A DNA stretch of 64,000 nucleotides, from contig CANEGO010000002.1 in NCBI GenBank assembly GCA_947427095.1, positions 99,810 to 163,809 on the forward strand, written 5' to 3'. This document shows positions 1,746-42,250 of this stretch, piece after piece. Position 1 is the stretch's first letter, and the number at the start of each line of letters is the position of its first letter. The stretch comes from an uncultured Clostridium sp. (lineage in GTDB: Bacteria > Bacillota_I > Bacilli_A > RF39 > UBA660). The notes under the pieces are model-generated. The model was given only the letters and a program-made list of their open reading frames with translations. It was not told where the DNA came from and searched no databases. The translations under genes and the position numbers were made by a program.

Positions 1746-1955
1746 TTAAAGGAGACTAATGGTACTATATATATCAACAAAAAAATTAACCAATAAATAT
1801 GATAGTATAAGTGATAACGTAAAATAAAATGAATGTATTTGCATTATGCTATTTTTTTTAAAAATTTTATCTAAGTTTGTTGATGTAACTATCCATATGT
1901 TAAATGGAATTATAAGACAGTATAAAATAAGTTTAATACTCATTAGTTTCCTCAT
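1746..1955 (-). CDS. Small hydrophobic membrane protein (69 aa), hypothetical
   Basis: ORF with two predicted TM helices and a GAGGAA RBS. It overlaps the rpiB 3' end by 23 nt. Weak support. Confidence 0.3.
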   Translation of the reverse strand: MRKLMSIKLILYCLIIPFNIWIVTSTNLDKIFKKNSIMQIHSFYFTLSLILSYLLVNFFVDIYSTISLL

Positions 1956-2379
1956 AATTTTCTACTTGCTTAATTCTTATTTTATAACAAGGATCTGAAA
2001 GAAATGTCGAATTAATAAATATTTCTATCATTTCTTTTATTTCTTCTGCACTATGAGATTGTGCACTAAAAGCAAGTACGTTAGCATCATTATGCTCTTT
2101 TGCAGATTTAGCTTCAGCTTTATTATCAATTTTTGCGCATCTTATACCTTTTACCTTATTACAAGCAATCGAAACTCCAATACCGGTTCCACACATTACT
2201 ATTCCTAAATCAACTTCTTTATTTATTACAGCATCACTTAAAGTTAAAGCAAATTTAGGATAATCTATTCGCTCATCAGAATAACAACCATAATCGATTA
2301 TTTCATAATTATCTAATAAATTTTTCAATCTTTCTTTTACAGCATAAGCTCTATGATCGTTTGCAATTCCTATTCTCAT
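1933..2379 (-). CDS. rpiB: Ribose-5-phosphate isomerase B (RpiB/LacAB family)
   Basis: MRIGIANDHRAY...GIVMCGTGIGVSIACNKVKGIRCA matches RpiB motifs. An AAGGAGTGAT RBS is present. Confidence 0.85.
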   Translation of the reverse strand: MRIGIANDHRAYAVKERLKNLLDNYEIIDYGCYSDERIDYPKFALTLSDAVINKEVDLGIVMCGTGIGVSIACNKVKGIRCAKIDNKAEAKSAKEHNDANVLAFSAQSHSAEEIKEMIEIFINSTFLSDPCYKIRIKQVENYEETNEY

Positions 2380-2404: not shown

Positions 2405-2431
2405 TCAAAAAAGACCGCTTCAAGTCTTTTA
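2405..2431 (-). terminator. Rho-independent terminator after the N/Q-rich gene, just upstream of the rpiB RBS
   Basis: Hairpin AAAAGAC-N8-GTCTTTT followed by a U-run on the minus strand. Confidence 0.45.
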
Positions 2432-3610
2432 TTTATTTATTTTTATTATCAATTGTTGCATATGTTCAAAATCAAATTCTTCTAACTCTATATCTACTCC
2501 TTGATTTTTCAAATCTTGAATTAACTCTTTTAATTTTAAAACAGAATCGTTAACAGATAACATAGGTTTTGAATCATCATCCGATTCATCTTCATTAATA
2601 TCCATAATATCTAATGTATCTGGTTCATCATACATACCTTCTATTCCTAAATCTGATAAAGTAGATACGTTTTGTGAACTATCGTTCAACTTAGAATCTT
2701 GAATAATAGTATATTCGTTATTAATACCCAAATCCGTTGATTGAGTATTAGTGGTATTATCCAATTCTTTAGTGATTTCATTATCTTCAGTTGAAACTTG
2801 ATTAATATTTAAATTTTCCTGACCTAAAATATTATTTACAATATTTTTATTGTTTTGATTAAATTCATTTTCGTTCACTGAAAAATTAGAATTCGTATTT
2901 AAAACAAAATTTTCATTACTATTAAAAGCGGGTTGATCATTATTAAATTGTGGTACTTGAGATAATTGATTGGGAATTTGTCCAGAAAAAGTACTTGAAG
3001 GTGTACTACTTAACATATTATTATTATTCAAATTAAAGTTTCCATTAGAAGTATCAAAATTTGAAAAAGAATTCATTGACATATAGTTTTGAGGCTGGTT
3101 AATCACTTCCGGATATGAATTATTAATAGACGGATTTGGCATAATAGAAGTTTGAACATTATTAAAATTATTTAAATTACCATTTTCATAATTATCCAAT
3201 GGATCGTTAGCCCTTGCAACTTCAGGCATTACATTCATAGGATCCAAAACTTCCATGGTTGGAGCACTTGCTATGGTTGCATCACTTAAATTTTTAATTT
3301 CACCTAATTCTGGTGGTATATCACCTAAATTTTGACCTTCTAAATTTAAATCTTGATTAACAAAAGAAGGTGCAGAATTTACGTTCATTTGAGGCATTGT
3401 AGTGTTAAAACTTTTATCAAAAACATTATTAGTATCGTATGATCCAGTTTGATAGTTATTTGTATTTTGAACAGGTTGATTGATTTCATTTTGAAAAGTT
3501 TGATATTCACCATTAGCATTTCCTAAAGTATTAGTAAAATCATTTTGAAAAAGCGGTTTTACTTCATCATTGTTAAAATTCCTATTATTATTCATATCAT
3601 TATTAAACAT
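2429..3610 (-). CDS. Asn/Gln-rich low-complexity protein (393 aa) with a short structured acidic/helical C-terminus
   Basis: Uninterrupted 393-codon ORF in AT-rich DNA with an AAAGGGGAA RBS. About 30% N+Q, no TM helix. It sits where noc/parA/parB are found in most Firmicutes. Confidence 0.5.
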   Translation of the reverse strand: MFNNDMNNNRNFNNDEVKPLFQNDFTNTLGNANGEYQTFQNEINQPVQNTNNYQTGSYDTNNVFDKSFNTTMPQMNVNSAPSFVNQDLNLEGQNLGDIPPELGEIKNLSDATIASAPTMEVLDPMNVMPEVARANDPLDNYENGNLNNFNNVQTSIMPNPSINNSYPEVINQPQNYMSMNSFSNFDTSNGNFNLNNNNMLSSTPSSTFSGQIPNQLSQVPQFNNDQPAFNSNENFVLNTNSNFSVNENEFNQNNKNIVNNILGQENLNINQVSTEDNEITKELDNTTNTQSTDLGINNEYTIIQDSKLNDSSQNVSTLSDLGIEGMYDEPDTLDIMDINEDESDDDSKPMLSVNDSVLKLKELIQDLKNQGVDIELEEFDFEHMQQLIIKINK

Positions 3611-3646
3611 ATTATAATTCCCCTTTATCTTTAATTAAATAATACA

Positions 3647-3677
3647 ATAAAAAAGCCACTATTACAATGGCTTTTTC
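3647..3677 (-). terminator. Terminator at the rsmG 3' end
   Basis: AAGCCA-N9-TGGCTT hairpin followed by a T-run on the minus strand. It overlaps the last rsmG codons. Confidence 0.55.
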
Positions 3678-4363
3678 TTAATTTCGCTAAACTTTCTAGG
3701 ATATTTAACACTTGTTCTCACAAGTTTTTCTATTTTTATTAAAGTTCTTGTCCCAGCATTATAAGGTAGTTCAAAAATAATGGTATCTTTTATAACTCCT
3801 CCTAGCGTTTTTACCGCTTTTTCGGCACTTTTTATCTCTTCTTTTGCTTCTGCTTTCATTGAAATAAAGTATCCGTCAGTTTTTACAAACGGAATACATA
3901 ATTCCGATAAAGTATTTAAATTTGCTACTGCTCTTGATGTCACTAAATCAAAACTTTCTCTTTTATTTATAACATATTCTTCTGCTCTAGCATGAATAGC
4001 TTCTATATCCTTTAGATTTAATTTTTCTATAACAGATTTTAAGAACGTAATTCTTTTATTTAATGAATCTACTAAAGTTACTTTTAAATTAGGAAATACT
4101 ATTTTTAATACTAATCCTGGAAAGCCAGCACCGGTTCCTATATCAAGTAACGTTTGATCATCTAATTTTATAGTTTTAACAAGCGTTAAACTATCATAAA
4201 AATGTTTTAAATATACTTCGTTTTCCTCGGTTATTCTAGTTAAATTAGTATGACTATTATAGTCTATTAACATTTTATAATAAGTATCTAAATCACTTAA
4301 CTGTTTATTGGTTATGTCTATGTTTAAATCTTTTAAAGCTCTTATAAACTCTTCTTTATTCAT
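3662..4363 (-). CDS. rsmG: 16S rRNA m7G527 methyltransferase RsmG (GidB)
   Basis: Full-length match to the RsmG pattern (..DIGTGAGFPGLVLKIVFP..). It overlaps mnmG by 8 nt. Confidence 0.9.
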   Translation of the reverse strand: MNKEEFIRALKDLNIDITNKQLSDLDTYYKMLIDYNSHTNLTRITEENEVYLKHFYDSLTLVKTIKLDDQTLLDIGTGAGFPGLVLKIVFPNLKVTLVDSLNKRITFLKSVIEKLNLKDIEAIHARAEEYVINKRESFDLVTSRAVANLNTLSELCIPFVKTDGYFISMKAEAKEEIKSAEKAVKTLGGVIKDTIIFELPYNAGTRTLIKIEKLVRTSVKYPRKFSEIKKKPL

Positions 4364-6179
4364 TGTAAAACCTCTTTAAGTATACCATTAGTATTGCTAT
4401 ATCAGATGGATTAACACCGCTAATACGAGTTGCTTGATCAATGGTTCTAGGTCTTACTTTTTCTAATTTTTGTCTTGCTTCAGTAGCTAGATTATCTATC
4501 TTTTTATAATCAATATCATCTGGTATCTGCTTTTTACCAAGCCTAATCGTTTTCTCAGCTTCTTTTTTAGCTTTTGCAATATAACCTTCATATTTATGAT
4601 TAATTTCTACTTGTTCTAATACTTCTTTATCATAAGTCTTGCTTAATTTATCTACATAATCCGTTATTTTCACTTCTGGTCTTTTCAAATATTCTGATAA
4701 ATTACATTTATACTGTGGAAAAGTAATAGTTTTAATATCTTCTTCTAATTCTTCTATTTGTTTTAATTTATTTAATAATTTATTATGTCTTTCCTCGCTA
4801 AGTAATCCCACGCTGTATGCTTTTTCACTTAGTCTTAAATCAGCGTTATCGCTTCTAAGTAGCAATCTAAACTCTGCACGAGAAGTAAGTAATCTATATG
4901 GTTCAATGGTTCCTTTAGTTACTAAATCATCTATTAAAACACCTATATAAGCATCACTTCTTGATAATATTAATGGTTCTTTATTATCTAGTTTTAAACT
5001 AGCGTTAATACCTGCAATAATACCTTGTCCTGCGGCTTCTTCATAACCTGATGTTCCATTTATTTGACCTGCGGTAAATAAGTTTTCTATTACCTTAGTT
5101 TCAAGTGATGGCTTAAGTTGTAATGGATCTATTGCATCGTATTCTATTGCGTATGCATATTTTAATATTTTAGCGTGTTCTAATCCTTTTAATGAGTGAA
5201 CCATATCTTCTTGAACATCGTGAGGCATAGATGTTGAAAATCCTTGTAAATATATATCATCATAGTACATACTTTCTGGTTCCAAAAATAATTGATGTCT
5301 TTCTTTATCTTTAAAGCGAACTACTTTATCTTCTATTGAAGGGCAATATCTAGGACCAGTACCTAGTTTTTCATAGAACCCACCATACATAGCGGATTTA
5401 TCTAGGTTATCCATTATTATCTTATGTGTCTTTTCATTTGTATAAGTTAAATAACAAGGTTCTTGGTTTTTGTAATCATAGTACGCTATATTATCAAAGC
5501 TGAAGGTTAACTCTTCATCATCCCCATCTTCACGAGATAATTCACTAAAATCAATAGAAGATCTTTCTATTCTAGGAGGTGTTCCTGTTTTTAATCTAAG
5601 TATCTTAAATCCTAACTTTTCTAAGTTATCACTTAAGAAATTAGATCTTTTTTCTCCATGTGGTCCTTCTGGTGTTCTATTATCACCTACTAATATATCC
5701 GCTTTTAAATAAGTACCCGTTGTTAATATACAAGCATCACAATTAATAGTTTCACCATCTTCAGTAGTAATTCCAGTTATTTTATCATTATTAACTAATA
5801 AATCTCCTACTACCCCTTCTTTAATTGTTAAATTATCAGTACTTTCTAATGTCTTTAACATTTCTTTTTTATATGTTACTTTATCTGCTTGGCTACGTAA
5901 AGATCTAACAGCAGGACCTTTAGACGAATTAAGCATCTTTATTTGAAGTAACGTCTTATCAGCATTACGTCCCATTTCTCCACCTAATGCATCTATTTCT
6001 CTTACAACGATACCTTTAGCACTACCACCAATAGATGGGTTACATGGCATATCCGCAATGTTTTCTTTATTAATTGTTATAAGTAAAGTCTTTTTTCCCA
6101 TTCTAGCTGTCGCAAGTGCGGCCTCACAACCGGCATGACCTGCTCCTACTACAATAATGTCATATTTCATACTACTCAC
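4356..6179 (-). CDS. mnmG: tRNA uridine-5-carboxymethylaminomethyl modification enzyme MnmG (GidA)
   Basis: N-terminal FAD motif KYDIIVVGAGHAGCEAA and 607 aa of conserved GidA sequence. Confidence 0.95.
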   Translation of the reverse strand: MSSMKYDIIVVGAGHAGCEAALATARMGKKTLLITINKENIADMPCNPSIGGSAKGIVVREIDALGGEMGRNADKTLLQIKMLNSSKGPAVRSLRSQADKVTYKKEMLKTLESTDNLTIKEGVVGDLLVNNDKITGITTEDGETINCDACILTTGTYLKADILVGDNRTPEGPHGEKRSNFLSDNLEKLGFKILRLKTGTPPRIERSSIDFSELSREDGDDEELTFSFDNIAYYDYKNQEPCYLTYTNEKTHKIIMDNLDKSAMYGGFYEKLGTGPRYCPSIEDKVVRFKDKERHQLFLEPESMYYDDIYLQGFSTSMPHDVQEDMVHSLKGLEHAKILKYAYAIEYDAIDPLQLKPSLETKVIENLFTAGQINGTSGYEEAAGQGIIAGINASLKLDNKEPLILSRSDAYIGVLIDDLVTKGTIEPYRLLTSRAEFRLLLRSDNADLRLSEKAYSVGLLSEERHNKLLNKLKQIEELEEDIKTITFPQYKCNLSEYLKRPEVKITDYVDKLSKTYDKEVLEQVEINHKYEGYIAKAKKEAEKTIRLGKKQIPDDIDYKKIDNLATEARQKLEKVRPRTIDQATRISGVNPSDIAILMVYLKRFYNE

Positions 6180-6789
6180 CTTCTTTTAAATTAACTTCGT
6201 AAATAAACTGTTCTTCTTTTTCTGTTTTAGCTTTATCGAAATAAATTGGCTCTTCGTAAATTTTTTTAAAACCTAAACGTTCATAATATTTATAGTTACA
6301 ATCATCATCAGTTACTATTTTTAGTTTTTTCATGTTATCTTTTCTTGCCAAATTAAAAATCATTTTTAATAGTTCGGATCCATAACCATTTCCTTGATAT
6401 TTTTTATCAACTATGAAAATAATAATATCTCCATCATATTTATTATCAAATTTAGATTCTATTTTATCATACAATTCATTATATCTTGCGAAAGCTTTTT
6501 TATCTTTTATAAAAGGGCCTTTTACTATTAAAGATTTTAAAAATTTATAGAATTTTTTTTTAACCAAAAATTTTTTGGAGTCTCTCTTTTCATATGCACA
6601 AAAACCAATTACTTTATTATCTACTTTTTTTATTATCATCCGCTCTGATTTTGATAATATATCAAATAATAAATAATAAGCACACCAAGGGCCAGTTGTT
6701 TTTGATTCTTCCTCCCCCAATTCCCACTGGTTATGTAAAATATTCATCATTTGCCTTAATTCTTTAATTTTCAAATAAATCACCAACAT
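6172..6789 (-). CDS. GNAT-family N-acetyltransferase (205 aa)
   Basis: Acetyl-CoA-binding motif A (VDKKYQGNGYGSELLKMIF) and YYERLGFKK. The stop overlaps the mnmG start by 8 nt, so it is co-transcribed with mnmG. Confidence 0.7.
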   Translation of the reverse strand: MLVIYLKIKELRQMMNILHNQWELGEEESKTTGPWCAYYLLFDILSKSERMIIKKVDNKVIGFCAYEKRDSKKFLVKKKFYKFLKSLIVKGPFIKDKKAFARYNELYDKIESKFDNKYDGDIIIFIVDKKYQGNGYGSELLKMIFNLARKDNMKKLKIVTDDDCNYKYYERLGFKKIYEEPIYFDKAKTEKEEQFIYEVNLKEGE

Positions 6790-6824
6790 TTCTTTTGGTA
6801 TTATACAATATAATTAAAAAAAAG

Positions 6825-7763
6825 TTAATTCCTAACTCTTTCCATGTTATTTAATTTATAACTTATTAAATAAATCCCATAATCATTTACGTATTGCATT
6901 ATAAAATTATCATTATTTTTTGATATAATTAATCCAATTGTTTTATTATGATATTTCATCTTTAAAGTTTTATCTACTATTTTTCTATATAGCTGTATTT
7001 GGCTAATATCTTTATAATTAGTGTTATTAAGTTTTAATTCTACTGGTATATAACAATTTAGATTGGTATTGAATAACATCATATCAACATAAAAGGGCTT
7101 ATCTAGATACGTTAATTTATACTCACTTCCTGCATATAAAAATCCTGTTCCTAGCTGCAAAAAGAAATCTCTTAACTCTTCTAATATATATTTTTTAAGC
7201 ATCTTTTCACTTAAATTTTTATTGTTTAGAGCTTTTATAATAATTGGATCTAATAACATATCTTTTAAACTATAATCTAATTCTTTATTTGTATCTATTA
7301 GTTTTATATTATTTTTATCTGCATAATATAATCTATCAAAGGCTTTTTCTTTTATTAATTTAATTAGTTCTCTCTTAGACAAATTATTTAAAATACATTG
7401 ATTTATATAATAATTTCTTTCATTTTCATTTTTTATTGGAAGCAGATAACGCCAATGGGTCCAAGTTATGTTAAATTGGTGGCCCGCTGGGCCACCTTTT
7501 TGAGTAACTATTAAAAATTGCCTCATTCTCTTTAAATTAGATATATCATAACCCTTACCATATTGTTCTACTAACTTTTTAGACCAATTCTTAATAAGTT
7601 CATTGCCATATTTAGCCCTTGTTTCTCCACCTTGTGCTTCTACTAATAACTTACCAATTTCATAATAAGCTTCTAATGTATCTTTATTAGATTGTAATCT
7701 TCTTACTCCTTCATTTATTTCTTTATTTTCTATTACGTTTTTTATTTTCTTATAATAATCCAT
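6825..7763 (-). CDS. DUF1016/YhcG-like protein with a C-terminal PD-(D/E)XK nuclease motif
   Basis: N-terminal YhcG-like region and a C-terminal ..FYVDMMLF..IPVELKL.. (D...ExK) motif. It has its own TATAAT -10 and GGAG RBS downstream of the mnmE terminator. Confidence 0.6.
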   Translation of the reverse strand: MDYYKKIKNVIENKEINEGVRRLQSNKDTLEAYYEIGKLLVEAQGGETRAKYGNELIKNWSKKLVEQYGKGYDISNLKRMRQFLIVTQKGGPAGHQFNITWTHWRYLLPIKNENERNYYINQCILNNLSKRELIKLIKEKAFDRLYYADKNNIKLIDTNKELDYSLKDMLLDPIIIKALNNKNLSEKMLKKYILEELRDFFLQLGTGFLYAGSEYKLTYLDKPFYVDMMLFNTNLNCYIPVELKLNNTNYKDISQIQLYRKIVDKTLKMKYHNKTIGLIISKNNDNFIMQYVNDYGIYLISYKLNNMERVRN

Positions 7764-9281: not shown

Positions 9282-10610
9282 CTAAATTAAAGTTACTGAA
9301 CTCTTTTTATTATCTATTTCATTAACTATTGAATTAATAGAGTTATCAAACGAATCTTTAGAAACTTCTTTTGCCATAATATCAGTTTCTTCTACTTCAT
9401 TAACACTTTTCTTCGTTATAACCTTAATATAATTATCATAATATTCCCTTATTATTGTCATATTATCTAAATCTAATGCTGTAGTATCAGAGTTTTTATT
9501 AGCAGATTGAAAAAAAGTTTTTTTATAAAACTTTGGAATTCCTATCTCCTCTATTTTTTTTGAATTAAAATAATATTTAATACCGGAATCGCAATGAGTA
9601 AAGTTTATATTTGATATATATTTGATATGTTCATAAATCATTGGATTTATGAGTTCTTCATTTTCGATAATATCAAAATAGCAATCTCTTAATAAATCTA
9701 TTATTTTAATTCTTAAACTATCAAAGTCAGGATTTTCTTCTTTTCGTTCCCATCTATAATCGTTAAATAAAGCAAATAATTCATCTACCTTTTCTTTTTC
9801 TATTCCTCTATTTACTAAGGCATTCACTAATATATTTATGTCTCCTTTTGCTCTTGTTTCAAACAATATATCTGAACCTACAAATTCACATAAGATTCTA
9901 CAAAAAGTAACTTCAGCATCATACGAAATCAACTCATCATTATATTCATAAGCCAATAAGGCAGTTAGCCCTTCAAAAAACCATGCATTATCCCCTTTAT
10001 AATGTTCTTCCGCATGAAATATTTCATGTGAAATGGAATTATTTCTACAATTATCATTAGCAAAGGTTATTGAATTATCGTAATTATTATATAAACCAGC
10101 TATTCCTTCATCAAGCAAAGCCTCGTCACTTGAATTAATTTTAAAACTTGATAATTTATTATATACATACTCATAATCTAAATATTTATTATCTATAAAA
10201 TACTGTATATAACCAGTTAATTTTTCTTTTTCTTCTTTAGTTAAATACTCATTTTGTAATAATGCGTAGTATAAAGCATATGCTTTTTTTTCATCCATAT
10301 CAGAATTTCTTATTTTATCTACTATGTCTTTAAATGCATCATCACAAATAAATTCATTTGTTTTCACAGCTTGATAATTAGCGATAAAATCGGAACTCAT
10401 AGTAGACCCGGTAAAAGGGTTAGAATTATTTAACTCATATTCTACTCCATTTTTTATAGTACTTAAACAAATAGTTCCTTGAAGTGATAATAAAAGAGCT
10501 AAAAAGGCTGAAGTTATTTTTATTTGCCTATTTTTTAATTGTTCTAATTTACTTATATTATCATTCTTTCTTTTATAAAAATCTTTATCTTTATACAAAT
10601 GTAACACCAC
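9282..10610 (-). CDS. Membrane-anchored putative zinc metallopeptidase (HExxH zincin), 442 aa, family unknown
   Basis: N-terminal signal-anchor TM (IKITSAFLALLLSLQGTICL). HEIFHAEEH is followed by EGLTALLAYE about 20 aa downstream, a gluzincin-like arrangement of a third ligand. Confidence 0.5.
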   Translation of the reverse strand: MVLHLYKDKDFYKRKNDNISKLEQLKNRQIKITSAFLALLLSLQGTICLSTIKNGVEYELNNSNPFTGSTMSSDFIANYQAVKTNEFICDDAFKDIVDKIRNSDMDEKKAYALYYALLQNEYLTKEEKEKLTGYIQYFIDNKYLDYEYVYNKLSSFKINSSDEALLDEGIAGLYNNYDNSITFANDNCRNNSISHEIFHAEEHYKGDNAWFFEGLTALLAYEYNDELISYDAEVTFCRILCEFVGSDILFETRAKGDINILVNALVNRGIEKEKVDELFALFNDYRWERKEENPDFDSLRIKIIDLLRDCYFDIIENEELINPMIYEHIKYISNINFTHCDSGIKYYFNSKKIEEIGIPKFYKKTFFQSANKNSDTTALDLDNMTIIREYYDNYIKVITKKSVNEVEETDIMAKEVSKDSFDNSINSIVNEIDNKKSSVTLI

Positions 10611-16352: not shown

Positions 16353-17375
16353 ATGCCTAAGATTTTAGTGGCTGATTTATTTGGTACAATAATTCCAAAT
16401 AATATATTGAATGCTAATTATTTATATGTAAACATAGATAAATATAAAGATATTAATGAAATTTGTTATGATAAAAATCAGCATGAGTATTTGATTGAAA
16501 AATTATGTTTACAATGTGCAAATGATTTAAAAAAATTTTTAAACGATGGTAATGAACTTATAATAGCGTCGGATTTATCGGCTCACGAATTAAATTTAAC
16601 TTTTATTTATGAGGAGATTATAGAAAAAATATTAAAGTATTGTAATAAAAATTTTACTTTATATATGGTAACAAAGGGCGGCGCAGCTAGTTTCAACTTA
16701 GAGGTGTTAAAATCTCATATTACTGAAGAATATAGTGAACATGGTATTGATTATATTGTGTTTGAAGGTTATAAAATAGGTCTTATTGATAGAAAGGAAG
16801 ACATATTTAGAGTAGTTGAAAGTAAATTTAACTTACAAGAATGTGAATTATATTCAATTGGAAATGATTACAAAGATATTCCTATGCTTGTTAGATGTAT
16901 TGAGTTAGGTGGAAAAAGTTCTTTATTAAACTATAATTTATATTCTAACGAACTTCTTTCAAGAACTACGTTAGATAAAGCTATATGTGAAAGGATTCAA
17001 AGAGAAAATCATATATTATTAGAAAAAGAGTTGTTAAAAGACCATCCTGGTTTTAGTTTGTTAGATAAGTATAAATATTTAATGGAAAGAAGGCTAACTT
17101 CAGAATATAATAGATGGTATGAAAAAAGAAAAGAGGAGCTTTATCAAGAAGTAAGAAAAGGTAATATTACGTTAGAACAATTAATTAAAGAAAAATTAAT
17201 TTTTGGACTTTGTCAAACTGCTATTAATCATTGTTTAGAAAGGAAAACATTCATCGAAAATAATTTAGATAAAATAGATATGTATTCTACTTTTAGAGAT
17301 TATTATAATAAAGTACTTAATTGTGATTCAAAAGAAGAAATAAAAAAATCACCCGTAAAATTATTAAAACCTTAA
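16353..17375 (+). CDS. HAD-superfamily (Cof-like IIB) protein with a degenerate motif I and a roughly 130-aa charged helical C-terminal extension
   Basis: Motif IV SIGNDYKDIPML is present and motif I reads ILVADLFGTII (DxD changed to DxF). It has its own TATAAT promoter and an AAAGGAGG RBS. Confidence 0.55.
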   Translation: MPKILVADLFGTIIPNNILNANYLYVNIDKYKDINEICYDKNQHEYLIEKLCLQCANDLKKFLNDGNELIIASDLSAHELNLTFIYEEIIEKILKYCNKNFTLYMVTKGGAASFNLEVLKSHITEEYSEHGIDYIVFEGYKIGLIDRKEDIFRVVESKFNLQECELYSIGNDYKDIPMLVRCIELGGKSSLLNYNLYSNELLSRTTLDKAICERIQRENHILLEKELLKDHPGFSLLDKYKYLMERRLTSEYNRWYEKRKEELYQEVRKGNITLEQLIKEKLIFGLCQTAINHCLERKTFIENNLDKIDMYSTFRDYYNKVLNCDSKEEIKKSPVKLLKP

Positions 17376-17474: not shown

Positions 17475-17936
17475 ATGAAAAATTATGAAATTAATAGGCA
17501 AACGTTAGCAATAATATCTTGTGGAAAGGAAAAATCAAAAATAATAGAAGAAAATAATGAGTTTTTTATTGATCAATCTTCTACTAAAATAATTGATGAT
17601 AGTTGTAGGTTTTTTGGTAGTTCATACGATGGGAGACTTAATGGGACTAAAAGTATTTTAGGTGTTTCACACAAAGCACCCATTATTATTGAAGAAAGTT
17701 CTGGTATAATATTTTTTCCAACCACATCTCCTAGATTAGATTGTTGTTCATGGATTTCTTTAAACAATATAGAAGAATACTATAAATTATATGGTGATAC
17801 AATAATAAAATTTAGTTGTGGAAAAAAAATAAAGTTAGAATTATCGTATGGAATAATTGATAATCAAATATTAAGAGCAACGAGATTAGAGGCATTAATA
17901 GCAAAAAGAACTTATAATTTAAAAAAAATAGCTTAA
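17475..17936 (+). CDS. comK: ComK-family competence transcription factor homologue (153 aa)
   Basis: DDSCRFFGSSYDGR and HKAPIIIEESSGIIFFPTTS align with B. subtilis ComK DRSCRFFGSSYAGR and HKPPIMVDPSNQIFLFPTLS. An AAAGGAGGG RBS is present. Confidence 0.7.
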   Translation: MKNYEINRQTLAIISCGKEKSKIIEENNEFFIDQSSTKIIDDSCRFFGSSYDGRLNGTKSILGVSHKAPIIIEESSGIIFFPTTSPRLDCCSWISLNNIEEYYKLYGDTIIKFSCGKKIKLELSYGIIDNQILRATRLEALIAKRTYNLKKIA

Positions 17937-23597: not shown

Positions 23598-23623
23598 TTT
23601 AATGTTTCACGTGAAACATTAAT
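23598..23623. repeat. Perfect 24-bp palindrome TTAATGTTTCACGTGAAACATTAA (copy 1), between the gyrA stop and the ffs promoter
   Basis: Exact self-complementarity read directly from the sequence. Confidence 0.9.
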
Positions 23624-23671
23624 TAAGTATAATAATTCTTGATTATTTATTAATAATATAATAAAATATAA

Positions 23672-23750
23672 ATGCACAACGGAAATGCTAGAATCAGGTC
23701 AGGGCCGAGAGGCAGCAGCCTTAATAACCTCTTTTCGTGTGTGCTTTTTT
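23672..23750 (+). ncRNA. ffs: Signal recognition particle RNA, short 4.5S-type (ffs/scRNA)
   Basis: The domain IV core CAGGUCAGGGCCGAGAGGCAGCAGCC matches the conserved SRP RNA motif (E. coli CAGGUCAGGUCCGGAAGGAAGCAGCC). The 5' GCACA and 3' UGUGC ends can pair. A TATAAT -10 sits at 23657-62 and a U-run at the 3' end. Its position before dnaX mirrors B. subtilis scr. Confidence 0.6.
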
Positions 23751-23762
23751 AATTTAAAATAT

Positions 23763-23780
23763 ATGTTTCACGTGAAACAT
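23763..23780. repeat. Perfect 18-bp palindrome ATGTTTCACGTGAAACAT (copy 2), in the tadA promoter/5'UTR just upstream of the RBS
   Basis: Exact palindrome, 6 nt upstream of the GGAG RBS. Confidence 0.9.
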
Positions 23781-23794
23781 TATAGGAGAATAAA

Positions 23795-24205
23795 ATGCAA
23801 AAAAAATTTATAGAACTGGCAATAAAGGAAGCAGTAAAAGCATTAAAAAAGGGAGAAGTGCCAGTTGGAGCTATAATTATAAAAAATGGTAAAATTATTG
23901 CTAAAGCACATAATTTGGTAGAGAAGCGAAGAAATGCTACATTTCATGCAGAAATTTTAGCTATGACTAAAGCATACGGAAAAACAAAAAATTGGAGACT
24001 GAATGACTGTGAAATGTATGTTACATTGGAGCCTTGTAAGATGTGTGCTGCCGCAATAGAACTAAGTAGGATTAAAAAGGTCTATTATTTGTTACCTAAA
24101 GATAAAGAAAATATTTTTATTAATAAAGAAAAATATATATTTTTAAAAGATTATAAAAAAGATTCCTTAGATTTGATACATAGTTTTTTTAAAAAAATAA
24201 GATAA
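23795..24205 (+). CDS. tadA: tRNA-specific adenosine deaminase TadA
   Basis: Zinc-binding HAE (FHAEILAM) and PCxxC (EPCKMCAAAI) motifs. Confidence 0.85.
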   Translation: MQKKFIELAIKEAVKALKKGEVPVGAIIIKNGKIIAKAHNLVEKRRNATFHAEILAMTKAYGKTKNWRLNDCEMYVTLEPCKMCAAAIELSRIKKVYYLLPKDKENIFINKEKYIFLKDYKKDSLDLIHSFFKKIR

Positions 24206-24225
24206 TGTTTCACGTGAAACATTAT
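24202..24225. repeat. Perfect 24-bp palindrome ATAATGTTTCACGTGAAACATTAT (copy 3), overlapping the tadA stop codon and upstream of the dnaX promoter
   Basis: Exact palindrome. It may also act as an intrinsic terminator hairpin, since a U-rich tract follows it. Confidence 0.9.
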
Positions 24226-24288
24226 CTTTTAGTTTAAAAATAATAGTTAAAATGATATAATATAAAAGTAAATGAAAGGAGAGATTGC

Positions 24289-25932
24289 ATGGCATATCAA
24301 ACGTTATATAGAAAATATCGCCCAAAGAGTTTTAAACTAGTATATGGCCAAGATACTATAGTAAGAACTTTAAAAAATGTAATTAAAAATAATAAGTTAA
24401 GTCATGCATATCTGTTTACTGGGCCAAGAGGGACCGGAAAAACAAGTAGTGCTAAACTTTTTGCAAAAGCTATAAATTGTTTAAACAATCAAAATGGAGA
24501 TGCATGTAATGAATGCGATAATTGCAACTCATTTAATAATAATAAAAATCCGGATATAATTGAAATTGATGCTGCTTCAAATAATGGCGTGGATGAAATA
24601 AGAGAAATAAAAAATAAGATTAGTTTAGTTCCATCAATGTCAAAGTATAAAGTATATATAATTGATGAGGTACATATGCTTTCTATAGGTGCGTTTAATG
24701 CCCTGTTAAAAACTTTGGAAGAGCCACCAGAATATGTTATTTTTATATTGGCGACTACAGAGCCTCAAAAATTACCCGTAACAGTAATTTCACGATGCCA
24801 AAGATTCGATTTTAAAAACATATCTAAGCAAAATATGAAAGAATGCCTTAAAAATATAATCATGGGGGAAAATATAAATATTAGCGATGATGCATTAAAT
24901 GAAATTATAGATAATTCTAACGGTGGAATGAGAGATGCCATAGGAATGTTAGATCAAGCTTTTGCTTTTTGTGAGAAAGAAATCACTTTAAATGATATTC
25001 AAGAATTATCTGGTAGTATTTCAACTTCAGAAATATCTTCTTTCTTTAAAAATTTAAAGTTAAAATCATACAATGAAATTATAGATATGATAAAAAATTG
25101 GTCAAATAAAGGAAAGGATTTTTTTGTGATATCTCAAAAACTAATTAACATTACTAGAAATGCTATTTTGTATAAGAAAAATGTTGATATAGGAGAAACA
25201 AGAATAAATAATTTAAGTGTATTTGATGAATATAATGAATTAAATTTATATTTAATAATTGATAATTTGACTGAAACACTAAATAAATTACAATTTAGTT
25301 ATCAAAAGGAGTTAATATTTGAAATACAAATGATTAAATTAATTGATCAATTCAATGTTCCACGTGAAACATTGAATAAAAAAATAACAGAGCAATCAAA
25401 GCCTATCATAAAAAATGATGTTCCACGTGGAACATTGAATGATAATACATCTGTAGTTGAAAAATTAGATCAATTTATTTTGAAATTAAAAGAAATTAGA
25501 ATAAATAATATATTAAAAGAGTCTTCACGCAATGAATTAAAATATATAGATGATTTATGGGAAAATATAAATGATTATTTGGTGGAAGAAAAATATAAAA
25601 AATGCGCGGGCATACTATTACAATGTAAACCTGTTGCAGCTTCAAAAAATGGAATTATAATTACACTGCCAGCACAGTCATTGTTAGTGGAGATTGAAAA
25701 AAATTATGACTTTAGCAAAGAAATGATAAAAGAAATATTAAATTCAAAGTATAAAATTGTATATATAACAGATGAGTATTGGAAAAGTATAAGACCTAAA
25801 TATGTGGAATTAGTAAAAAATAATGAATTAGAGATAAAGGATGAACTACAATTGCTTTCTAAAATAAATAAAATTAAAAGCGAAACGTCTGTTAATGAAT
25901 TTGATGAATTAATTGAAATGGAGGAAAAATAA
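24289..25932 (+). CDS. dnaX: DNA polymerase III subunit tau/gamma
   Basis: Walker A GPRGTGKTS, a Zn module CNECDNC, and tau C-terminal domains. Extended -10 TGATATAAT and GGAG RBS. Confidence 0.95.
   Translation: MAYQTLYRKYRPKSFKLVYGQDTIVRTLKNVIKNNKLSHAYLFTGPRGTGKTSSAKLFAKAINCLNNQNGDACNECDNCNSFNNNKNPDIIEIDAASNNGVDEIREIKNKISLVPSMSKYKVYIIDEVHMLSIGAFNALLKTLEEPPEYVIFILATTEPQKLPVTVISRCQRFDFKNISKQNMKECLKNIIMGENINISDDALNEIIDNSNGGMRDAIGMLDQAFAFCEKEITLNDIQELSGSISTSEISSFFKNLKLKSYNEIIDMIKNWSNKGKDFFVISQKLINITRNAILYKKNVDIGETRINNLSVFDEYNELNLYLIIDNLTETLNKLQFSYQKELIFEIQMIKLIDQFNVPRETLNKKITEQSKPIIKNDVPRGTLNDNTSVVEKLDQFILKLKEIRINNILKESSRNELKYIDDLWENINDYLVEEKYKKCAGILLQCKPVAASKNGIIITLPAQSLLVEIEKNYDFSKEMIKEILNSKYKIVYITDEYWKSIRPKYVELVKNNELEIKDELQLLSKINKIKSETSVNEFDELIEMEEK
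25354..25375. repeat. Near-perfect palindrome CAATGTTCCACGTGAAACATTG (copy 4), in frame inside dnaX
   Basis: One mismatch from a perfect palindrome. It encodes ..NVPRETLN.. in the dnaX linker. Confidence 0.85.
25418..25435. repeat. Perfect 18-bp palindrome ATGTTCCACGTGGAACAT (copy 5), in frame inside dnaX
   Basis: Exact palindrome. It encodes ..DVPRGTLN.., 60 nt after copy 4. Confidence 0.9.
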
Positions 25933-35073: not shown

Positions 35074-35688
35074 GTGAAACATTTAAATAGAAAAATTAAG
35101 GGTGCATTATTAATCCTTGTGATTTGTTTAATAGCATTTATTGGTTTTTCAAAGGCCGGAATACTATTTTCGGCTGGTGGCGGTGATGTAATTACTGTTT
35201 CTACCACAAAAAAGACGTTTGATCCTAATAACTATGTTGCTTCGGCATCAATAGTTGCAACTACAACGAAACAAGAGACAACAACTATTACAACCACGAC
35301 AACGAAAGTAATTACAACTACTAAGGTGTTTACAACAGTGGAAACTACAACCGAAGCACCTAAAATAAGTTGGGCTGGAGAAGTTCTTTCTAAATCTAAA
35401 GGTGTTGTTATTGGACCTTCTGGAAAGGAATCTTATTATAACTTAAATATGACAAAAGTAATAAACACCATGAGACGTGCTGGATACTCTGAGGCAGAAT
35501 ATCCTTATTGGGTTCGTGAGGATGGTGTTAAGATGCTAGGCGATTATGTTATGGTTGCCGCAAATTATGATATACGTCCGCGAGGAACAATATTAGAAAG
35601 TTCACTTGGTTATGCCATAGTTTGTGACACTGGAGGATTTGCGAAAACAAATCCAACCCAAATTGATGTTGCTGTTACTTGGAGATAA
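35074..35688 (+). CDS. Secreted/membrane-anchored 3D-domain protein (YabE/YocH/MltA-like) with a poly-Thr linker (GTG start)
   Basis: Signal anchor, a T-rich spacer (TTTKQETTTITTTTTKVITTTKV), and a C-terminal 3D domain (..GYAIVCDTGGF...IDVAV). The position matches B. subtilis yabE. Confidence 0.7.
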   Translation: MKHLNRKIKGALLILVICLIAFIGFSKAGILFSAGGGDVITVSTTKKTFDPNNYVASASIVATTTKQETTTITTTTTKVITTTKVFTTVETTTEAPKISWAGEVLSKSKGVVIGPSGKESYYNLNMTKVINTMRRAGYSEAEYPYWVREDGVKMLGDYVMVAANYDIRPRGTILESSLGYAIVCDTGGFAKTNPTQIDVAVTWR

Positions 35689-37586: not shown

Positions 37587-37675
37587 TATATGAACTTTTT
37601 TATTTGTGTTTATTGATTTTTATCCCCATTTGTGGTTAAATTAAAATGTATAAACTAAAATGGGAGGACTATACT

Positions 37676-40600
37676 ATGAACATGGCAAAGTCGAATATTA
37701 AAAGCAGATTAAGTGATTGGTTTCTTATTCAGAGAATTAGAATAACTAATTTTATGAAGGAACATAAGTATGTTTCGGCGTTTATTGGTGTTTTTTTAAT
37801 GTCTTCCTTAATTGCTTTCATAGTTTACGCGGTTGATGCAAACAAGTATGATGGTCAGGTTTCAGTTACGGCTAAAGTTGAGCAAAAAAACGTATCTTCA
37901 AGCGAGGAAATTACACATATTAAAAGCTTTAGCAACATCATATATGATATATCATATGGATTATCAATATCAGACTTACCTGCCAACGAAACGGTTGTAA
38001 GGGAAAAAGTAATAATTGAAGCAGAATTTAACGAAGGTATTGATGCTGAATGGATATTCCAGGACGAGGATGCAACTTATGAATTGTCAGAAGATAAAAG
38101 AAAGTTAACGGTAACTATTTATCAAACTAAGGTTGGGGAACTTAACAGCAAGCAATTGTATTTAAAAGCAAAAAATATACAAAATGGAACAGTTATAAAT
38201 ACGAATATTAGAATAAAGGAATCTACCGCCGCAGATTTTACTGATTTAGGTCAAAAAAGTGTAGTAATAGAAAGTGAAAAAGTTGATTTAACTACTAAAA
38301 TAATATCTGGCACAGCTTATAAATCTTCTGACTATCAAGAAGGACGATTAGCTCCTTTTGGTATATTAGTTGGATTTGATAAAAGTAATCTTAAAACAGA
38401 GAATAAAGATAGTTTAGAGGGGCTTTATTTTGATCCTAATTTGAGTTTAATATTAGAAGCAACTCAGACTGTAAATGGAGTTAATTCTCAAATAGAATTA
38501 AAAAATGATAGTAATAAATTTTTTGGATTATATGATAAAGGATCTAATTTATTGCCATTGATGCCACATCATATAAATAATTATCAATATTATTCAGTAT
38601 ATAATTCCGGTAAGGTTACAAACTTAATCAAGTCAAAAAGTGGGGTTTCCGGTGTTGTTACTGAAAATAAAAATCCAGATTTATATTTAATAGGTGATAA
38701 AACCATGAATTTAGAGCTTGGAGAAAAATACGAAGAATATGGTGTGTCAACAACAAATGGTGGTTCAGCTATTTGCAAAACAAGCAGTTCTTCCTGCACC
38801 CGTGTTATAAAAGATAAAGATGGAAATGAAATCGCTGATAATGACGTTACCAAATCGGTTGGTAATTATATTGTTAGCTATGAATATAATACGGCAAGTG
38901 GTGTTACTAAGGTTAACAGAAATATCAAAGTTGCTGAAAAAACAACGGCTACTTTAAATGATGATGTGTATGAACTAAACGGTAATAAAATCATTACTTT
39001 AGTAAAAGGTACAGCTTATTCTGAAAGTGGAATAATAAAAAATGGTGCTAAATATTATAATTATGAAAGTATCATAACAAAAGATGGAGATGTTATTGAA
39101 AAAATAGACGCAACCATAGTTGGTACCTATGTAATAACTTATAAAATTACTGATGCTACTAGTCAGACGCCAGAAACTGGTGAAGAGACCCTGGCAGAGG
39201 AATCTACCATTAAAGAAGTTTCGTTAACAAGGACGGTTAAAGTAGTTGAAGGCTTGGAGTATTTGAAAGCACAAACGATTACTTCCAGCACTATTTATGC
39301 TCCGTCAGATGGTTCATTTACTAACCCTTTAATAAATCTTGATGGCAAGGATATAGAATGTACAAGCGATAGTGGATGTGAGGTTAAATATTATGATCCA
39401 ATTAGTAAAAAAGAAACAACTATTGATAAACAAAAAGCTGGAACATATAATGCTATATATAAAATAACCGATAAAAATGGATTTGAACTACAAACGGGAA
39501 ATGTTATTAATATTCAAACTAAATATGATTTTAATATAGAGGGAATAAAATCTGATGGAACTATTAATTTATATGGAGACGATTTTGTTGCATTAGGTTC
39601 TTATTTTGTAAATGCGGCATCTCCTAGAGCTCTTGAAGCAAGTGGTGATATTGCAGTTAATCTAAGAATTGGTGATGTAGTATCAGAAAATGTTATTAAT
39701 AAAGTTTATTCGGCAGGAACGAAAACTAATCATTTAACATTTAATACCGATACCTCTGGAATGTTAACAGAGTTGCCAAATGACACTTATTTAGCTTATG
39801 GTGAAGAAGTTATTTTAAGATCGGTATTTAATTATTCTAGTGATGGCGATGATAATATTGGAACTTTAACAACTAGGATTCCGATTGGTACGGCTGTTTC
39901 ATCAGCAAATAATCCGACCGCTCCGTTTACTATGGTTGAGTATAATAATAGTGTGGAGAATGGTGAACCCTATTACGTAAATGAGGAATTAAAAGATAAA
40001 GTAAAAGTTAGCTATTATGCATGTGAAATGGAAGAATCTAAGACAACCTGTATTAGTGAAACCGGAGCAACTTATGAAACTTTTGATACATTAAATGACG
40101 CTTTGAAGAAAAATGATAAATTAAGATTAGCTTATTTAACATACGTGGTTAATGACGTAAGACCTGGCTCTGAAATTGATTTTAGGATTAGATTAGTTGC
40201 TAACGTTGGAAATCATGATGGAGTACTTACAATGACATCAACATCTACATTTGATGAAAAGCAAGAAAATGGAACTAGTCAAAGTAAAAATATATCTGAT
40301 AATAGTACTATAAACGTTACCGCGTTTAAGGCAAGGACTAAAGTGTTTATTGGTAATAGTGAACAAGACGTCATAATAAATGCCGCTAATGTAAATAGCT
40401 CAACGTGGACTATTTATCCGACAATAAGTTTACCAGCAGAGTTAGTAAATACTAATATAGCGGCTATAGATGAACTTTCTAATATTACAATCGTTGTTAC
40501 TTTGCCTGATGGAATTAATTATTTATATAATGAAAATTATGATATTCCTTCAGTAAGTAATAATGGCAAAACCCTAACTTATGTTTTAAAGGGGAAACAC

Positions 40601-42250
40601 GTTAATGAGTGGATTGATCCGATAACGTTTGAGGCTAGTTATGATATAGATATTCCTTCTGGAACAAGAAAGGAAGTTAACGTTTTAATACAAGCAACGT
40701 CAACCAGTGGAATATCTGATGCATCTAGTAAAAACTTAAGAACAACAACGAGAGCAGTGACATATCAAAATAACGAAGTAATAACATATGCACAGTATAC
40801 TCCATATACAGCAATATCTAAAGAGACAAGTTTTAATGTAAGCACTAAATTATACAATAATGATAGTAAAGAAGTAACGCATTCAAATTTAGATATTGTA
40901 ACGCTACTTCCGTATAATGATGTAAGTAACGAAAAAAATAAATATACAGGCACATATACTATATCTAATTTACCTAAGGGAGCTTTATGTACAACTAGTA
41001 TTCCATCCGTAATAAGTGACTCTAAAAAACTTTTATCTGGTGATGAAATAACATGGGAAGATTGTTCTAAATATCAATCTGAGAACTATGTTGGCATTAC
41101 GGCCATTAGGGTTAATGGTATAAGTCTTGCTGCTAGAAAAACTTATGAACAAAGTATAACAATTAATCCAATAGGTAATAAAACAGATGATTCATATCAA
41201 ATTAATTCGTATTTAATCATGGATTCTGATGGTAAAAGGATTGTAAAAAATATTAAAGCTTTAAATATTGATGTTATTAGTAAAAGAATAACTGGTACGG
41301 TTTGGGAAGACTTTGACGCCAACGGTATTATGGATGCACAAGAAAAAAAGGTGTCAGGGGTTACTTTAAAATTATACAATGCGGAAACTGACGAACTTGT
41401 AAAAACTACTACTTCTGATGAAAAGGGTAAATATAGTTTATCTGATTTGATTCCGGGCACCTATTATGTAGTGGCAGAGTATAATACGGCAAAATATGGT
41501 TTATCACCATATCAAGTAACACTAGATAAATCTGTTAGTTCCTCGTTTAATGCAACTAAGGTTAACGAAGATAATATTGACTCTAAAAATAGTAATACAA
41601 AAGATGATATAGTATCTTCCGAATCGACAAAAGAAGATGTAGAATGCACTGGTGATGAGTGTACAGATCTTGACCCCTCTGATAAACTGGAAGAAACTCA
41701 GCCTGTTATTAGGACCGAAAATATAGAAATAAATAGTAATACTAGAATGGTTAGTAATGTTAATCTTGGTCTTGCACTTAGAAAGACATATTCTGTTAAA
41801 TTGACAAAGTATGTAACAAAGGCAATTACGACTAATAATCTTGGTGTATCAACAATAAAAGATTATGGTAATGTTTCTTTGGCAAAATTGGACGTAAAGG
41901 ATATAAATAATTTAGGTATTAAGGTTGTTTATACTTTAGAATTAGAAAATACTGGTTATTATCCTGGTTATATTTATTCTGTGAAGGATTATATTCCAGA
42001 TGGGATGAAGTTTAATGAAAATTATGAAGAAAATAAAGGTTGGGTAATGACTGAATATGGTTATTTGGAAAATAACACTTTATTTGATCAGTTGGTTGCT
42101 GGGGGAGAAAAGAAATATCTTACAGTCGCCTTTGATATCGTAAGAAAAGAAGCTGGCTCTTTTGTTAACTATGCGGCAGTGGATGATGAAGATTTACAAA
42201 TTTTAGTTGTTGCTGGAAATGAAGGAGAAGAAGGTGATAGTAATGAATAA
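37676..42250 (+). CDS. Giant N-terminally membrane-anchored surface protein (about 1525 aa) with a C-terminal CnaB/SdrD-B-type domain and a DUF11 domain
   Basis: Start set at the ATG 8 nt after GGGAGG; the track starts at 37646. A TM helix (VSAFIGVFLMSSLIAFIVYAV) follows a short cytoplasmic tail. ITGTVWEDFDANGIMDAQEKKVSGVTLKLYNAETDELVKTTTSDEKGKYSLSDLIPGTYYV is a classic CnaB/SdrD B repeat. The terminal VVYTLELENTGYYPGYIYSVKDYIPDGMKF is DUF11-like. There is no C-terminal sorting signal. Confidence 0.7.
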   Translation: MNMAKSNIKSRLSDWFLIQRIRITNFMKEHKYVSAFIGVFLMSSLIAFIVYAVDANKYDGQVSVTAKVEQKNVSSSEEITHIKSFSNIIYDISYGLSISDLPANETVVREKVIIEAEFNEGIDAEWIFQDEDATYELSEDKRKLTVTIYQTKVGELNSKQLYLKAKNIQNGTVINTNIRIKESTAADFTDLGQKSVVIESEKVDLTTKIISGTAYKSSDYQEGRLAPFGILVGFDKSNLKTENKDSLEGLYFDPNLSLILEATQTVNGVNSQIELKNDSNKFFGLYDKGSNLLPLMPHHINNYQYYSVYNSGKVTNLIKSKSGVSGVVTENKNPDLYLIGDKTMNLELGEKYEEYGVSTTNGGSAICKTSSSSCTRVIKDKDGNEIADNDVTKSVGNYIVSYEYNTASGVTKVNRNIKVAEKTTATLNDDVYELNGNKIITLVKGTAYSESGIIKNGAKYYNYESIITKDGDVIEKIDATIVGTYVITYKITDATSQTPETGEETLAEESTIKEVSLTRTVKVVEGLEYLKAQTITSSTIYAPSDGSFTNPLINLDGKDIECTSDSGCEVKYYDPISKKETTIDKQKAGTYNAIYKITDKNGFELQTGNVINIQTKYDFNIEGIKSDGTINLYGDDFVALGSYFVNAASPRALEASGDIAVNLRIGDVVSENVINKVYSAGTKTNHLTFNTDTSGMLTELPNDTYLAYGEEVILRSVFNYSSDGDDNIGTLTTRIPIGTAVSSANNPTAPFTMVEYNNSVENGEPYYVNEELKDKVKVSYYACEMEESKTTCISETGATYETFDTLNDALKKNDKLRLAYLTYVVNDVRPGSEIDFRIRLVANVGNHDGVLTMTSTSTFDEKQENGTSQSKNISDNSTINVTAFKARTKVFIGNSEQDVIINAANVNSSTWTIYPTISLPAELVNTNIAAIDELSNITIVVTLPDGINYLYNENYDIPSVSNNGKTLTYVLKGKHVNEWIDPITFEASYDIDIPSGTRKEVNVLIQATSTSGISDASSKNLRTTTRAVTYQNNEVITYAQYTPYTAISKETSFNVSTKLYNNDSKEVTHSNLDIVTLLPYNDVSNEKNKYTGTYTISNLPKGALCTTSIPSVISDSKKLLSGDEITWEDCSKYQSENYVGITAIRVNGISLAARKTYEQSITINPIGNKTDDSYQINSYLIMDSDGKRIVKNIKALNIDVISKRITGTVWEDFDANGIMDAQEKKVSGVTLKLYNAETDELVKTTTSDEKGKYSLSDLIPGTYYVVAEYNTAKYGLSPYQVTLDKSVSSSFNATKVNEDNIDSKNSNTKDDIVSSESTKEDVECTGDECTDLDPSDKLEETQPVIRTENIEINSNTRMVSNVNLGLALRKTYSVKLTKYVTKAITTNNLGVSTIKDYGNVSLAKLDVKDINNLGIKVVYTLELENTGYYPGYIYSVKDYIPDGMKFNENYEENKGWVMTEYGYLENNTLFDQLVAGGEKKYLTVAFDIVRKEAGSFVNYAAVDDEDLQILVVAGNEGEEGDSNE

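Follow-up and report, generated by a model that had tools for sequence, protein, structure and literature searches.

Which gene occupies the slot of noc, soj and spo0J, directly next to rsmG, in an uncultured Clostridium sp.? We addressed this question in a 64-kb stretch of contig CANEGO010000002.1 (subsequently designated the window). Behind rsmG, identified by its GidB match, and its terminator hairpin (3677-3649), the window carries in this slot an open reading frame (ORF) of 393 codons, here called X (2429-3610, minus strand), which encodes an Asn/Gln-rich protein. An earlier note on this DNA had correctly located the ORF in the slot, but had taken it for a foreign, prion-like gene replacing noc. 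Our analysis leads to a different answer: X is very probably noc itself, i.e. a noc orthologue that has lost in frame the cytidine triphosphate (CTP)-binding ParB_N domain and the helix-turn-helix (HTH) domain specific for Noc-binding sites (NBS).

Scans of X with Pfam and NCBIfam yielded no match even at E ≤ 1, and its family profile detected only low-complexity noise among PDB sequences (TFIIA, E 0.005). There was also no significant fold match to the topological-specificity domain of MinE, a dimer built from helix and hairpin. Several hallmarks of Noc and ParB proteins are missing from X, i.e. the ParB_N CTP-binding domain with its GERRxR box, the HTH with residues Q173, K179, K184 and R201 and the N-terminal amphipathic membrane-targeting helix. 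The N-terminus, MFNNDMNNNRNFNND.., is polar and predicted to be disordered, and no hydrophobic segment exists in the protein (maximum 19-residue hydropathy 0.54). What X does possess is, judged by sequence, a Noc-type C-terminal dimerisation domain and the orthologous rsmG-adjacent locus including a shared 5' control region.

The connection to noc is provided by full-length counterparts. A genome scan retrieved six more distant loci (L037, L041-L045), which match X in the C-terminal block only and in which tblastn with Spo0J picks the very same slot gene. These ORFs encode single proteins of 343-606 aa (369 aa from a GTG start in L042), composed of ParB_N, HTH_ParB, a long linker and an EEFDFExMYQ tail. 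In the 428-aa protein of L037, ParB_N and HTH_ParB were detected with E-values of 1.6e-32 and 3.7e-31, respectively, and the best NCBIfam match was TIGR04285 (nucleoid_noc) with 268.6 bits, covering profile positions 1-208 of 255. TIGR04285 is the best model for the full-length relatives as a group (268-292 bits), in each case aligned from position 1 to ~210 of 255. Specificity for NBS rather than parS is conferred by Q173, K179, K184 and R201 (Jalal 2020, PMC7383237). Q173, K179 and R201 are present in the full-length relatives, and K184 as well in L037; their HTH pattern reads ..SQ..I.NK.RLL(K).L...ISERHAR... The proteins start ~13-20 aa before PNRFQPR, as compared to 39 aa in B. subtilis.

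Among the full-length-Noc loci, L037 has the flanks nearest to those of the X clade (DnaA 86%, MnmG 75% identity). BLASTP aligned residues 99-143 of X, comprising the central motif, with residues 246-292 of the L037 protein (49% identity, E 3e-10) and residues 320-393, comprising the tail, with residues 357-428 (42% identity, E 5e-12), both matches being collinear. A hidden Markov model (HMM) of the central motif scored 60.9 bits on L037, the shared form being PP(E/F)LGEIxNL..AP(T/S)xDxLxPMN..DPxxAYEN. Outside the X clade this motif was found in L037 only; since it is common to both, it arose before the head was lost. Specific to the clade are the N-terminal and third motifs, with only a weak counterpart of the former in L037 (APLFDSSTF). 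The sequence of X begins just past the end of the DNA-binding domain of L037-type proteins. Moreover, the X genes and L037 are nearly identical in the DNA between the rsmG end and the ATG (GCCATTGTAA-TAGTGGCTTTTTT-ATTGTATTATTTA..GATA..GGGG..ATG), indicating that X uses the control region and start codon of noc.

The C-terminal domain was also compared with canonical Noc directly, using an alignment of B. subtilis Noc (P0243, 99% identical to the query sequence) and 11 other Bacillaceae Nocs. hhalign matched the profile of the X tail to this alignment (probability 85.6%, E 5.6e-6), pairing residues 356-393 of X with residues 246-283 of Noc, so that both reach the C-terminus exactly. An HMM of the X C-terminus scored the long-linker Nocs at 42-71 bits, the Bacillaceae Nocs at 17-20 bits and Spo0J at -4.8 bits. 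A profile search with the C-terminal block returned 377 cluster representatives; among the 150 of them listed, the stronger matches are all X-type and the weaker, full-length ones mostly carry ParB_N. In Noc, the C-terminal domain is the primary dimerisation domain (PMC8429893). In a neighbour-joining tree of MnmG and RsmG, all headless genomes group in a single clade; L037 is its sister, and L045 as well as L041-L044 branch outside. The topology therefore indicates that the head was lost once, which would fit a single loss of ~215 N-terminal codons. Homology, orthology and domain loss are established by these comparisons, and purifying selection by those given below.

Some points weigh against this reading. 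Taken alone, the C-terminal similarity between X and Bacillus Noc is modest (38 columns, 29% identity), and the case for descent from noc rests on the intermediate long-linker Nocs. The latter stay below the 315-bit cut-off of TIGR04285, as the alignment to the model does not include their C-terminal part. The tree carries no support values. Dimerisation and partner binding of X are inferred. Finally, a separate head or a second full-length noc may be present elsewhere in the genomes of the clade, our searches having covered the window and, in relatives, 10 kb on either side of the gene.

The last point leads to the alternative that fares best, namely a split gene. Here, the Noc head with ParB_N and HTH would be encoded elsewhere and X would be its detached tail, for instance a partner-binding subunit, so that occlusion is kept in two pieces. 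Purifying selection on the linker motifs and the C-terminal domain is compatible with such a retained role in the Noc pathway, and the inspected DNA is confined to the stretches just named. However, neither the window nor ~0.7 Mb of X-clade loci contain ParB_N or HTH sequences, and a head devoid of the C-terminal domain would miss the primary dimerisation domain of Noc (PMC8429893). In addition, no NBS (ATTTCCCGGGAAAT) occurs in the window at ≤2 mismatches, although only ~1 would be expected at B. subtilis density and 0.25 by chance. We therefore regard a split gene as unlikely.

The searches for ParA and ParB were negative throughout the window. In six frames, hmmsearch and phmmer found no ParB_N/HTH or Soj-like sequence better than E=0.1, an HMM built from the ParB_N and HTH region of the relatives matched in no frame, tblastn for parA and parB gave nothing at 1e-5, and no ORF of ParA or ParB size proved in Pfam scans to be parA, parB or a full-length noc. 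In the fetched loci, tblastn with Spo0J and Soj matched no genes other than the Noc-like ones of L037 and L041-L045. The absence of parAB from the origin-proximal 64 kb, as noted earlier, is thereby confirmed. It holds for the locus, but is not a sign of a genome lacking ParB, as indicated by a tight cluster of five parS sites located ~10 kb from dnaA and ~20 kb from X. A palindrome near tadA, previously pointed out as resembling parS, indeed proved to be the exact canonical site in three perfect copies, TGTTTCACGTGAAACA, each embedded in an 18-bp palindrome, ATGTTTCACGTGAAACAT. These copies fill the intergenic gaps of gyrA, the signal recognition particle (SRP) RNA gene, tadA and dnaX. The five sites span 1.8 kb. 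At ≤3 mismatches the window contains 13 matches to parS versus 1.5 expected, a number reached in 0/100 shuffles, and none of the five sites would be expected by chance. With no ParB gene in the window, the cluster implies that a separate, parS-binding ParB is almost certainly encoded elsewhere in the genome. In the relatives' loci no parS was found within ±10 kb of X, a range that does not extend to the ~20 kb at which the cluster lies in the window. Of note, soj-spo0J is also missing beside noc in the full-length-Noc outgroups; its absence is therefore older than, and unrelated to, the truncation.

Next, we consider whether X is a functional gene and what its unusual composition means. The protein consists of 20.4% Asn and 6.9% Gln, i.e. 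27.2% together (the earlier estimate was ~30%); for the remaining long ORFs of the window the figure is ~10%. Acidic residues amount to 14.8% and basic residues to 3.6%, resulting in a pI of ~4 and a net charge of ~-44. Tandem repeats within the ORF are trivial AT-rich ones only. The previous view that the ORF is genuine is borne out, and the ORF is conserved. It has an ATG, a ribosome-binding site and a dN/dS below 1, and 114 homologues were found at E≤1e-3, all of them unnamed and 250-465 aa in length. Among species-representative genomes, 34 X-type loci carry an intact ORF whose start, ribosome-binding site and length (about 300-510 aa) are conserved. X is moreover present in ~100 clusters at 50% identity, with divergence down to 30-45% identity. 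The slot gene follows rsmG directly in 47/47 related loci fetched.

Alignments of the family reveal four conserved blocks, separated by N/Q-rich stretches that are poorly alignable and variable in length. The N-terminal motif reads MFNNxMNNNxNFNN..PLFxNxF across the family and is disordered according to AlphaFold2. The central motif, DIPPELGEIKNLSDAT..SAPTMDVLxPMNxMPE..DPLDAYENG, includes the invariant or nearly invariant residues P99, P100, L102, I105, L108, A116, P117, L122, D136 and Y141. In the third motif, LSDLGIxxYxEPDTLxIMDI, residues L321, G322, Y327, D331, L333 and I335 are nearly invariant; by position, it may be the equivalent of ..RF(I/F)xDFDDE.. in the long-linker Nocs. The fourth block is the C-terminal one, ..V.KIK.LIEELK..G..IELEEFDFE.MYQLIIKI.K. 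Compared with the homologue in L046, which is 74% identical, X exhibits a dN/dS of 0.28 overall, 0.115 in the four blocks and 0.40 in the linkers; the values for the neighbours rpiB and rsmG are 0.08 and 0.16, respectively. AlphaFold2, supplied with an 84-sequence alignment, predicts ~250 of the 393 residues to be disordered and the central motif to be of intermediate confidence (pLDDT 60-80). The sole confidently folded part comprises residues 353-392 (pLDDT >90) and consists of a helix (353-369) and a beta-hairpin (373-392). A second model, restricted to the C-terminal 78 residues, gave the same arrangement. Thus, the C-terminus, described earlier as short, acidic and helical, is not purely helical.

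A prion-like or condensate-forming protein, in which Asn/Gln low-complexity regions drive self-assembly or phase separation, would account for the N+Q content, which is 21-29% among the X-clade homologues, for the extent of predicted disorder and for a dN/dS in the linkers that is still <1. However, conservation resides in the four motifs, which are not N/Q-rich, while the N/Q stretches themselves align poorly and vary in length. The corresponding linkers in the full-length relatives are rich in P, E, T, V and S instead, from which it follows that the Asn-richness goes with an AT-rich genome (26% GC). Also atypical of prion domains is the net charge of -44. We therefore hold this explanation to be quite improbable; the N/Q richness is better seen as that of a fast-evolving disordered linker. 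Still less credible is a decaying relic, i.e. a truncated noc on its way to loss without function of its own, since intact ORFs persist in the 34 X-type loci and in ~100 clusters that have diverged to 30-45% identity and the motif blocks contain invariant residues at a dN/dS of 0.115, even though every known biochemical activity of Noc is gone and the fast-evolving linkers carry many indels.

Returning to X as a truncated noc, the following course of events is the most probable. In the ancestor of the clade, noc would have lost ~215 N-terminal codons in frame, comprising ParB_N and HTH. Left over would be the original terminator, promoter, ribosome-binding site and start, followed by a long acidic disordered linker with short motifs and the Noc-type dimerisation domain; the filler of the linker would then have drifted to Asn/Gln richness in an AT-rich genome. 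X would dimerise through its C-terminal domain and thereby display two long flexible acidic arms, whose motifs might bind a partner. Lacking the domains for binding of DNA and CTP, X cannot exert canonical nucleoid occlusion. It could act, without recourse to DNA or CTP, as a dimeric adaptor or as regulator of its partner, a proposal that we put forward tentatively.

Canonical Noc (YyaA in B. subtilis and other Bacillota; TIGR04285) acts in nucleoid occlusion by linking DNA to the membrane (PMC4331003, PMC8429893). X shares with it the slot directly downstream of rsmG and the homologous C-terminal dimerisation domain, orthology being traced via the full-length intermediates in sister lineages. 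In contrast, X is devoid of the membrane-targeting helix, the CTP-binding ParB_N and the NBS-binding HTH, and its linker comprises ~330 aa with conserved motifs as compared to ~30 aa in Bacillus Noc. Noc proteins with long linkers and no membrane-targeting sequence (MTS), i.e. those of L037 and L041-L045, P0162, P0175, P0183 and others, resemble X in slot, in the EEFDFExMYQ-type C-terminal domain and in the long, disordered acidic linker, and L037 additionally in the central motif; unlike X, they retain ParB_N, HTH_ParB and the Noc specificity residues. Since these full-length proteins also lack the N-terminal amphipathic helix, the linker may have taken over tethering, which suggests that X keeps this role alone. 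Literature searches on Noc, also for truncated forms, returned work on canonical Noc only, in which neither a naturally headless Noc nor a long-linker subfamily is described.

Extending this thought, linker and C-terminal domain of Noc might constitute an autonomous module that binds a conserved partner, for example a component of the divisome, the membrane or replication initiation. In the long-linker, MTS-less Nocs the module would tie Noc-bound DNA to the partner in place of a lipid-binding helix. In the headless clade only the module would have been retained, as a regulator that needs neither DNA nor CTP, and a DNA-free mechanism would have taken the place of nucleoid occlusion or be all that is left of it. 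This is a possibility to which we assign no great weight.

ParB/Spo0J belongs to the superfamily of the ancestor of X, and the C-terminal domain of Spo0J, a helix followed by beta-strands, is similar in general layout to the X tail. However, Spo0J is not matched by the X C-terminal HMM, as reported above, and X cannot bind parS. PopZ of Caulobacter consists of an acidic disordered region with short binding motifs and a small C-terminal self-association domain. The likeness to X, an acidic disordered arm with motifs and a small C-terminal oligomerisation domain, is one of analogy only; there is no relation in sequence or fold and the evolutionary origin is separate.

Noc is understood as a CTP-switched clamp bridging DNA and membrane, and we know of no protein partner established for it. 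A natural Noc that throughout a clade is without CTPase, DNA-binding domain and membrane helix, yet under selection in linker motifs and dimerisation tail, is moderately surprising for a specialist of ParB and Noc. As selection persists in the absence of the head, the remaining part arguably does something by itself. The motifs PPELGEIKNL..APTMDVLDPMN..DPLDAYENG and LSDLGIxxYxEPDTLxIMD are candidate baits for a Noc partner. The comparison also reveals a large unannotated Noc subfamily whose linkers comprise 150-450 aa and which lacks an N-terminal membrane-targeting sequence, and several hundred 'hypothetical proteins' can now be named as Noc-derived.

This Noc-like subfamily (L037 9266-10552, L041-L045, P0162, P0175, P0183-P0240) carries the Noc specificity residues. 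Motifs recurring in many of its linkers are ..D(I/V)xKIKExAxDI.., ..P(N/D)(L/F)DxLL.. and ..(K/N)(R/K)F(F/I)xx(F/L)(D/E)(D/E)E.., the last of which resembles SRFFGLGEKE at the N-terminus of canonical Noc. In L045, the gap between rsmG and the full-length noc contains, just 5' of noc (~6290-6310), an NBS-like sequence, TATTTCCCGGAATA. It misses the ATTTCCCGGGAAAT consensus by one base and might serve in autoregulation or nucleation.

Features of X and its surroundings are compiled in Table 1. The sequence of the rsmG terminator is kept in L037 and in the X-type relatives compared. The promoter candidate, whose 9/12 consensus matches are by themselves not above chance, coincides with the block ATTGTATTAT, which is kept in the majority of the relatives compared, among them L037 with its full-length noc; its function as a promoter is putative. 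The terminator scan made no call for the hairpin behind X, which has fewer than three G-C pairs. An N-terminal extension, 'AFLLYYL.K.KG', in database homologues (P0008, P0011, P0033; L037 9218) was rejected as a start-codon or gene-caller artefact, because it represents translation of the conserved T-run of the rsmG terminator and the ribosome-binding site.

Table 1. Positions and characteristics of X, its signals and neighbours, and the parS cluster in the window.
Feature	Position	Strand	Characteristics
X, putative headless-Noc ORF, 393 aa	2429..3610	-	ATG start; probably Noc-derived linker and C-terminal domain, without ParB_N or HTH
N-terminal motif of X, aa 1-25	3536..3610	-	MFNNDMNNNxNFNN..(K)PLFxNxF; nearly invariant N7-N9, F12, N13, F21, N23
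Central motif of X, aa 95-146	3173..3328	-	DIPPELGEIKNLSDAT..SAPTMxVLDPMNVMPE..DPLDxYENG
Third motif of X, aa 318-338, acidic-hydrophobic	2597..2659	-	LSDLGIExxYDEPDTLDIMDI
C-terminal domain of X, aa 352-393	2432..2557	-	helix and beta-hairpin; ..KIKxLIxxLKxxGxxIELEEFDFExMxQLIIKIxK
Ribosome-binding site AAAGGGG	3620..3626	-	10 nt 5' of X ATG; relatives have G-rich block at same position
sigma-70-like promoter candidate TTGTAA-17-TATTAT	3639..3667	-	consensus scan 9/12; overlaps terminator, directly 5' of X
rsmG intrinsic terminator hairpin	3649..3677	-	terminator scan; GC-poor stem with 3 G-C pairs only; overlaps rsmG stop codon
Weak terminator-like hairpin AAGAC-TTGAAGCG-GTCTT, then T run	2407..2428	-	after X stop; read by eye
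rsmG (gidB)	3662..4363	-	upstream neighbour defining the noc slot; PF02527 GidB 2.5e-54
rpiB	1933..2379	-	downstream neighbour; PF02502 4.2e-44
parS cluster, five sites	23603..25434		23603-18, 23764-79, 24206-21 perfect; 25356-71, 25419-34 with 0-1 mismatch, inside dnaX

The GC skew reverses around 14 kb, at dnaA and dnaN, and the window thus represents the origin region. Beyond rpiB, downstream of X, a DUF1146/ywzB-like ORF, spoIID and an M23 peptidase gene follow. The flanking genes agree with the earlier note; of its spoIID/IIQ/IIID cluster, spoIIID lies past the left end of the window and is visible in relatives. The order slot gene, rpiB, DUF1146, spoIID and M23 is the same in the X-type loci and in L037, some loci adding spoIIID and several mbl; only in the distant L041-L045 is rpiB not directly after the slot gene. 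Hosts of X homologues are uncultured gut metagenome-assembled genomes labelled Bacilli, Mollicutes or Tenericutes, including Clostridium sp. CAG:594 and Candidatus Aphodocola excrementigallinarum. Farther upstream of X, the minus strand carries mnmG, a GNAT gene, a DUF1016 gene, mnmE, a 442-aa ORF, jag and yidC.

Some neighbours deserve mention in their own right. The 442-aa ORF between jag and mnmE (9282-10610, minus strand) is without Pfam match and has an apparent N-terminal hydrophobic segment. As jag and mnmE are adjacent in L001 and L007 and separated by a gap of ~1.4 kb in other relatives, the ORF is a variable insertion. Between mnmE and mnmG (6172-7763, minus strand), a DUF1016/YhcG PDDEXK-nuclease gene and a GNAT acetyltransferase gene break up the usual gene pair; the GNAT gene is also found in L004. 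A 204-aa protein (35074-35688, plus strand) has a membrane anchor at its N-terminus, a folded part at its C-terminus and a stretch that is Thr-rich and mucin-like, its sole match being a weak, composition-driven one to Pfam 'Mucin'. Two adjacent, very large surface-protein genes (37646-44372, plus strand) resemble a locus for a pilus or adhesin; they encode 1534 aa (SdrD_B, SpaA, Ig-like) and 721 aa (SpaA repeats). Finally, a 340-aa ORF without Pfam match (16353-17375, plus strand) lies between dnaN and a comK homologue (17475-17936, plus strand), while in L001 comK follows dnaN directly; the presence of comK beside origin genes in a reduced, Bacillus-like gut genome is notable.

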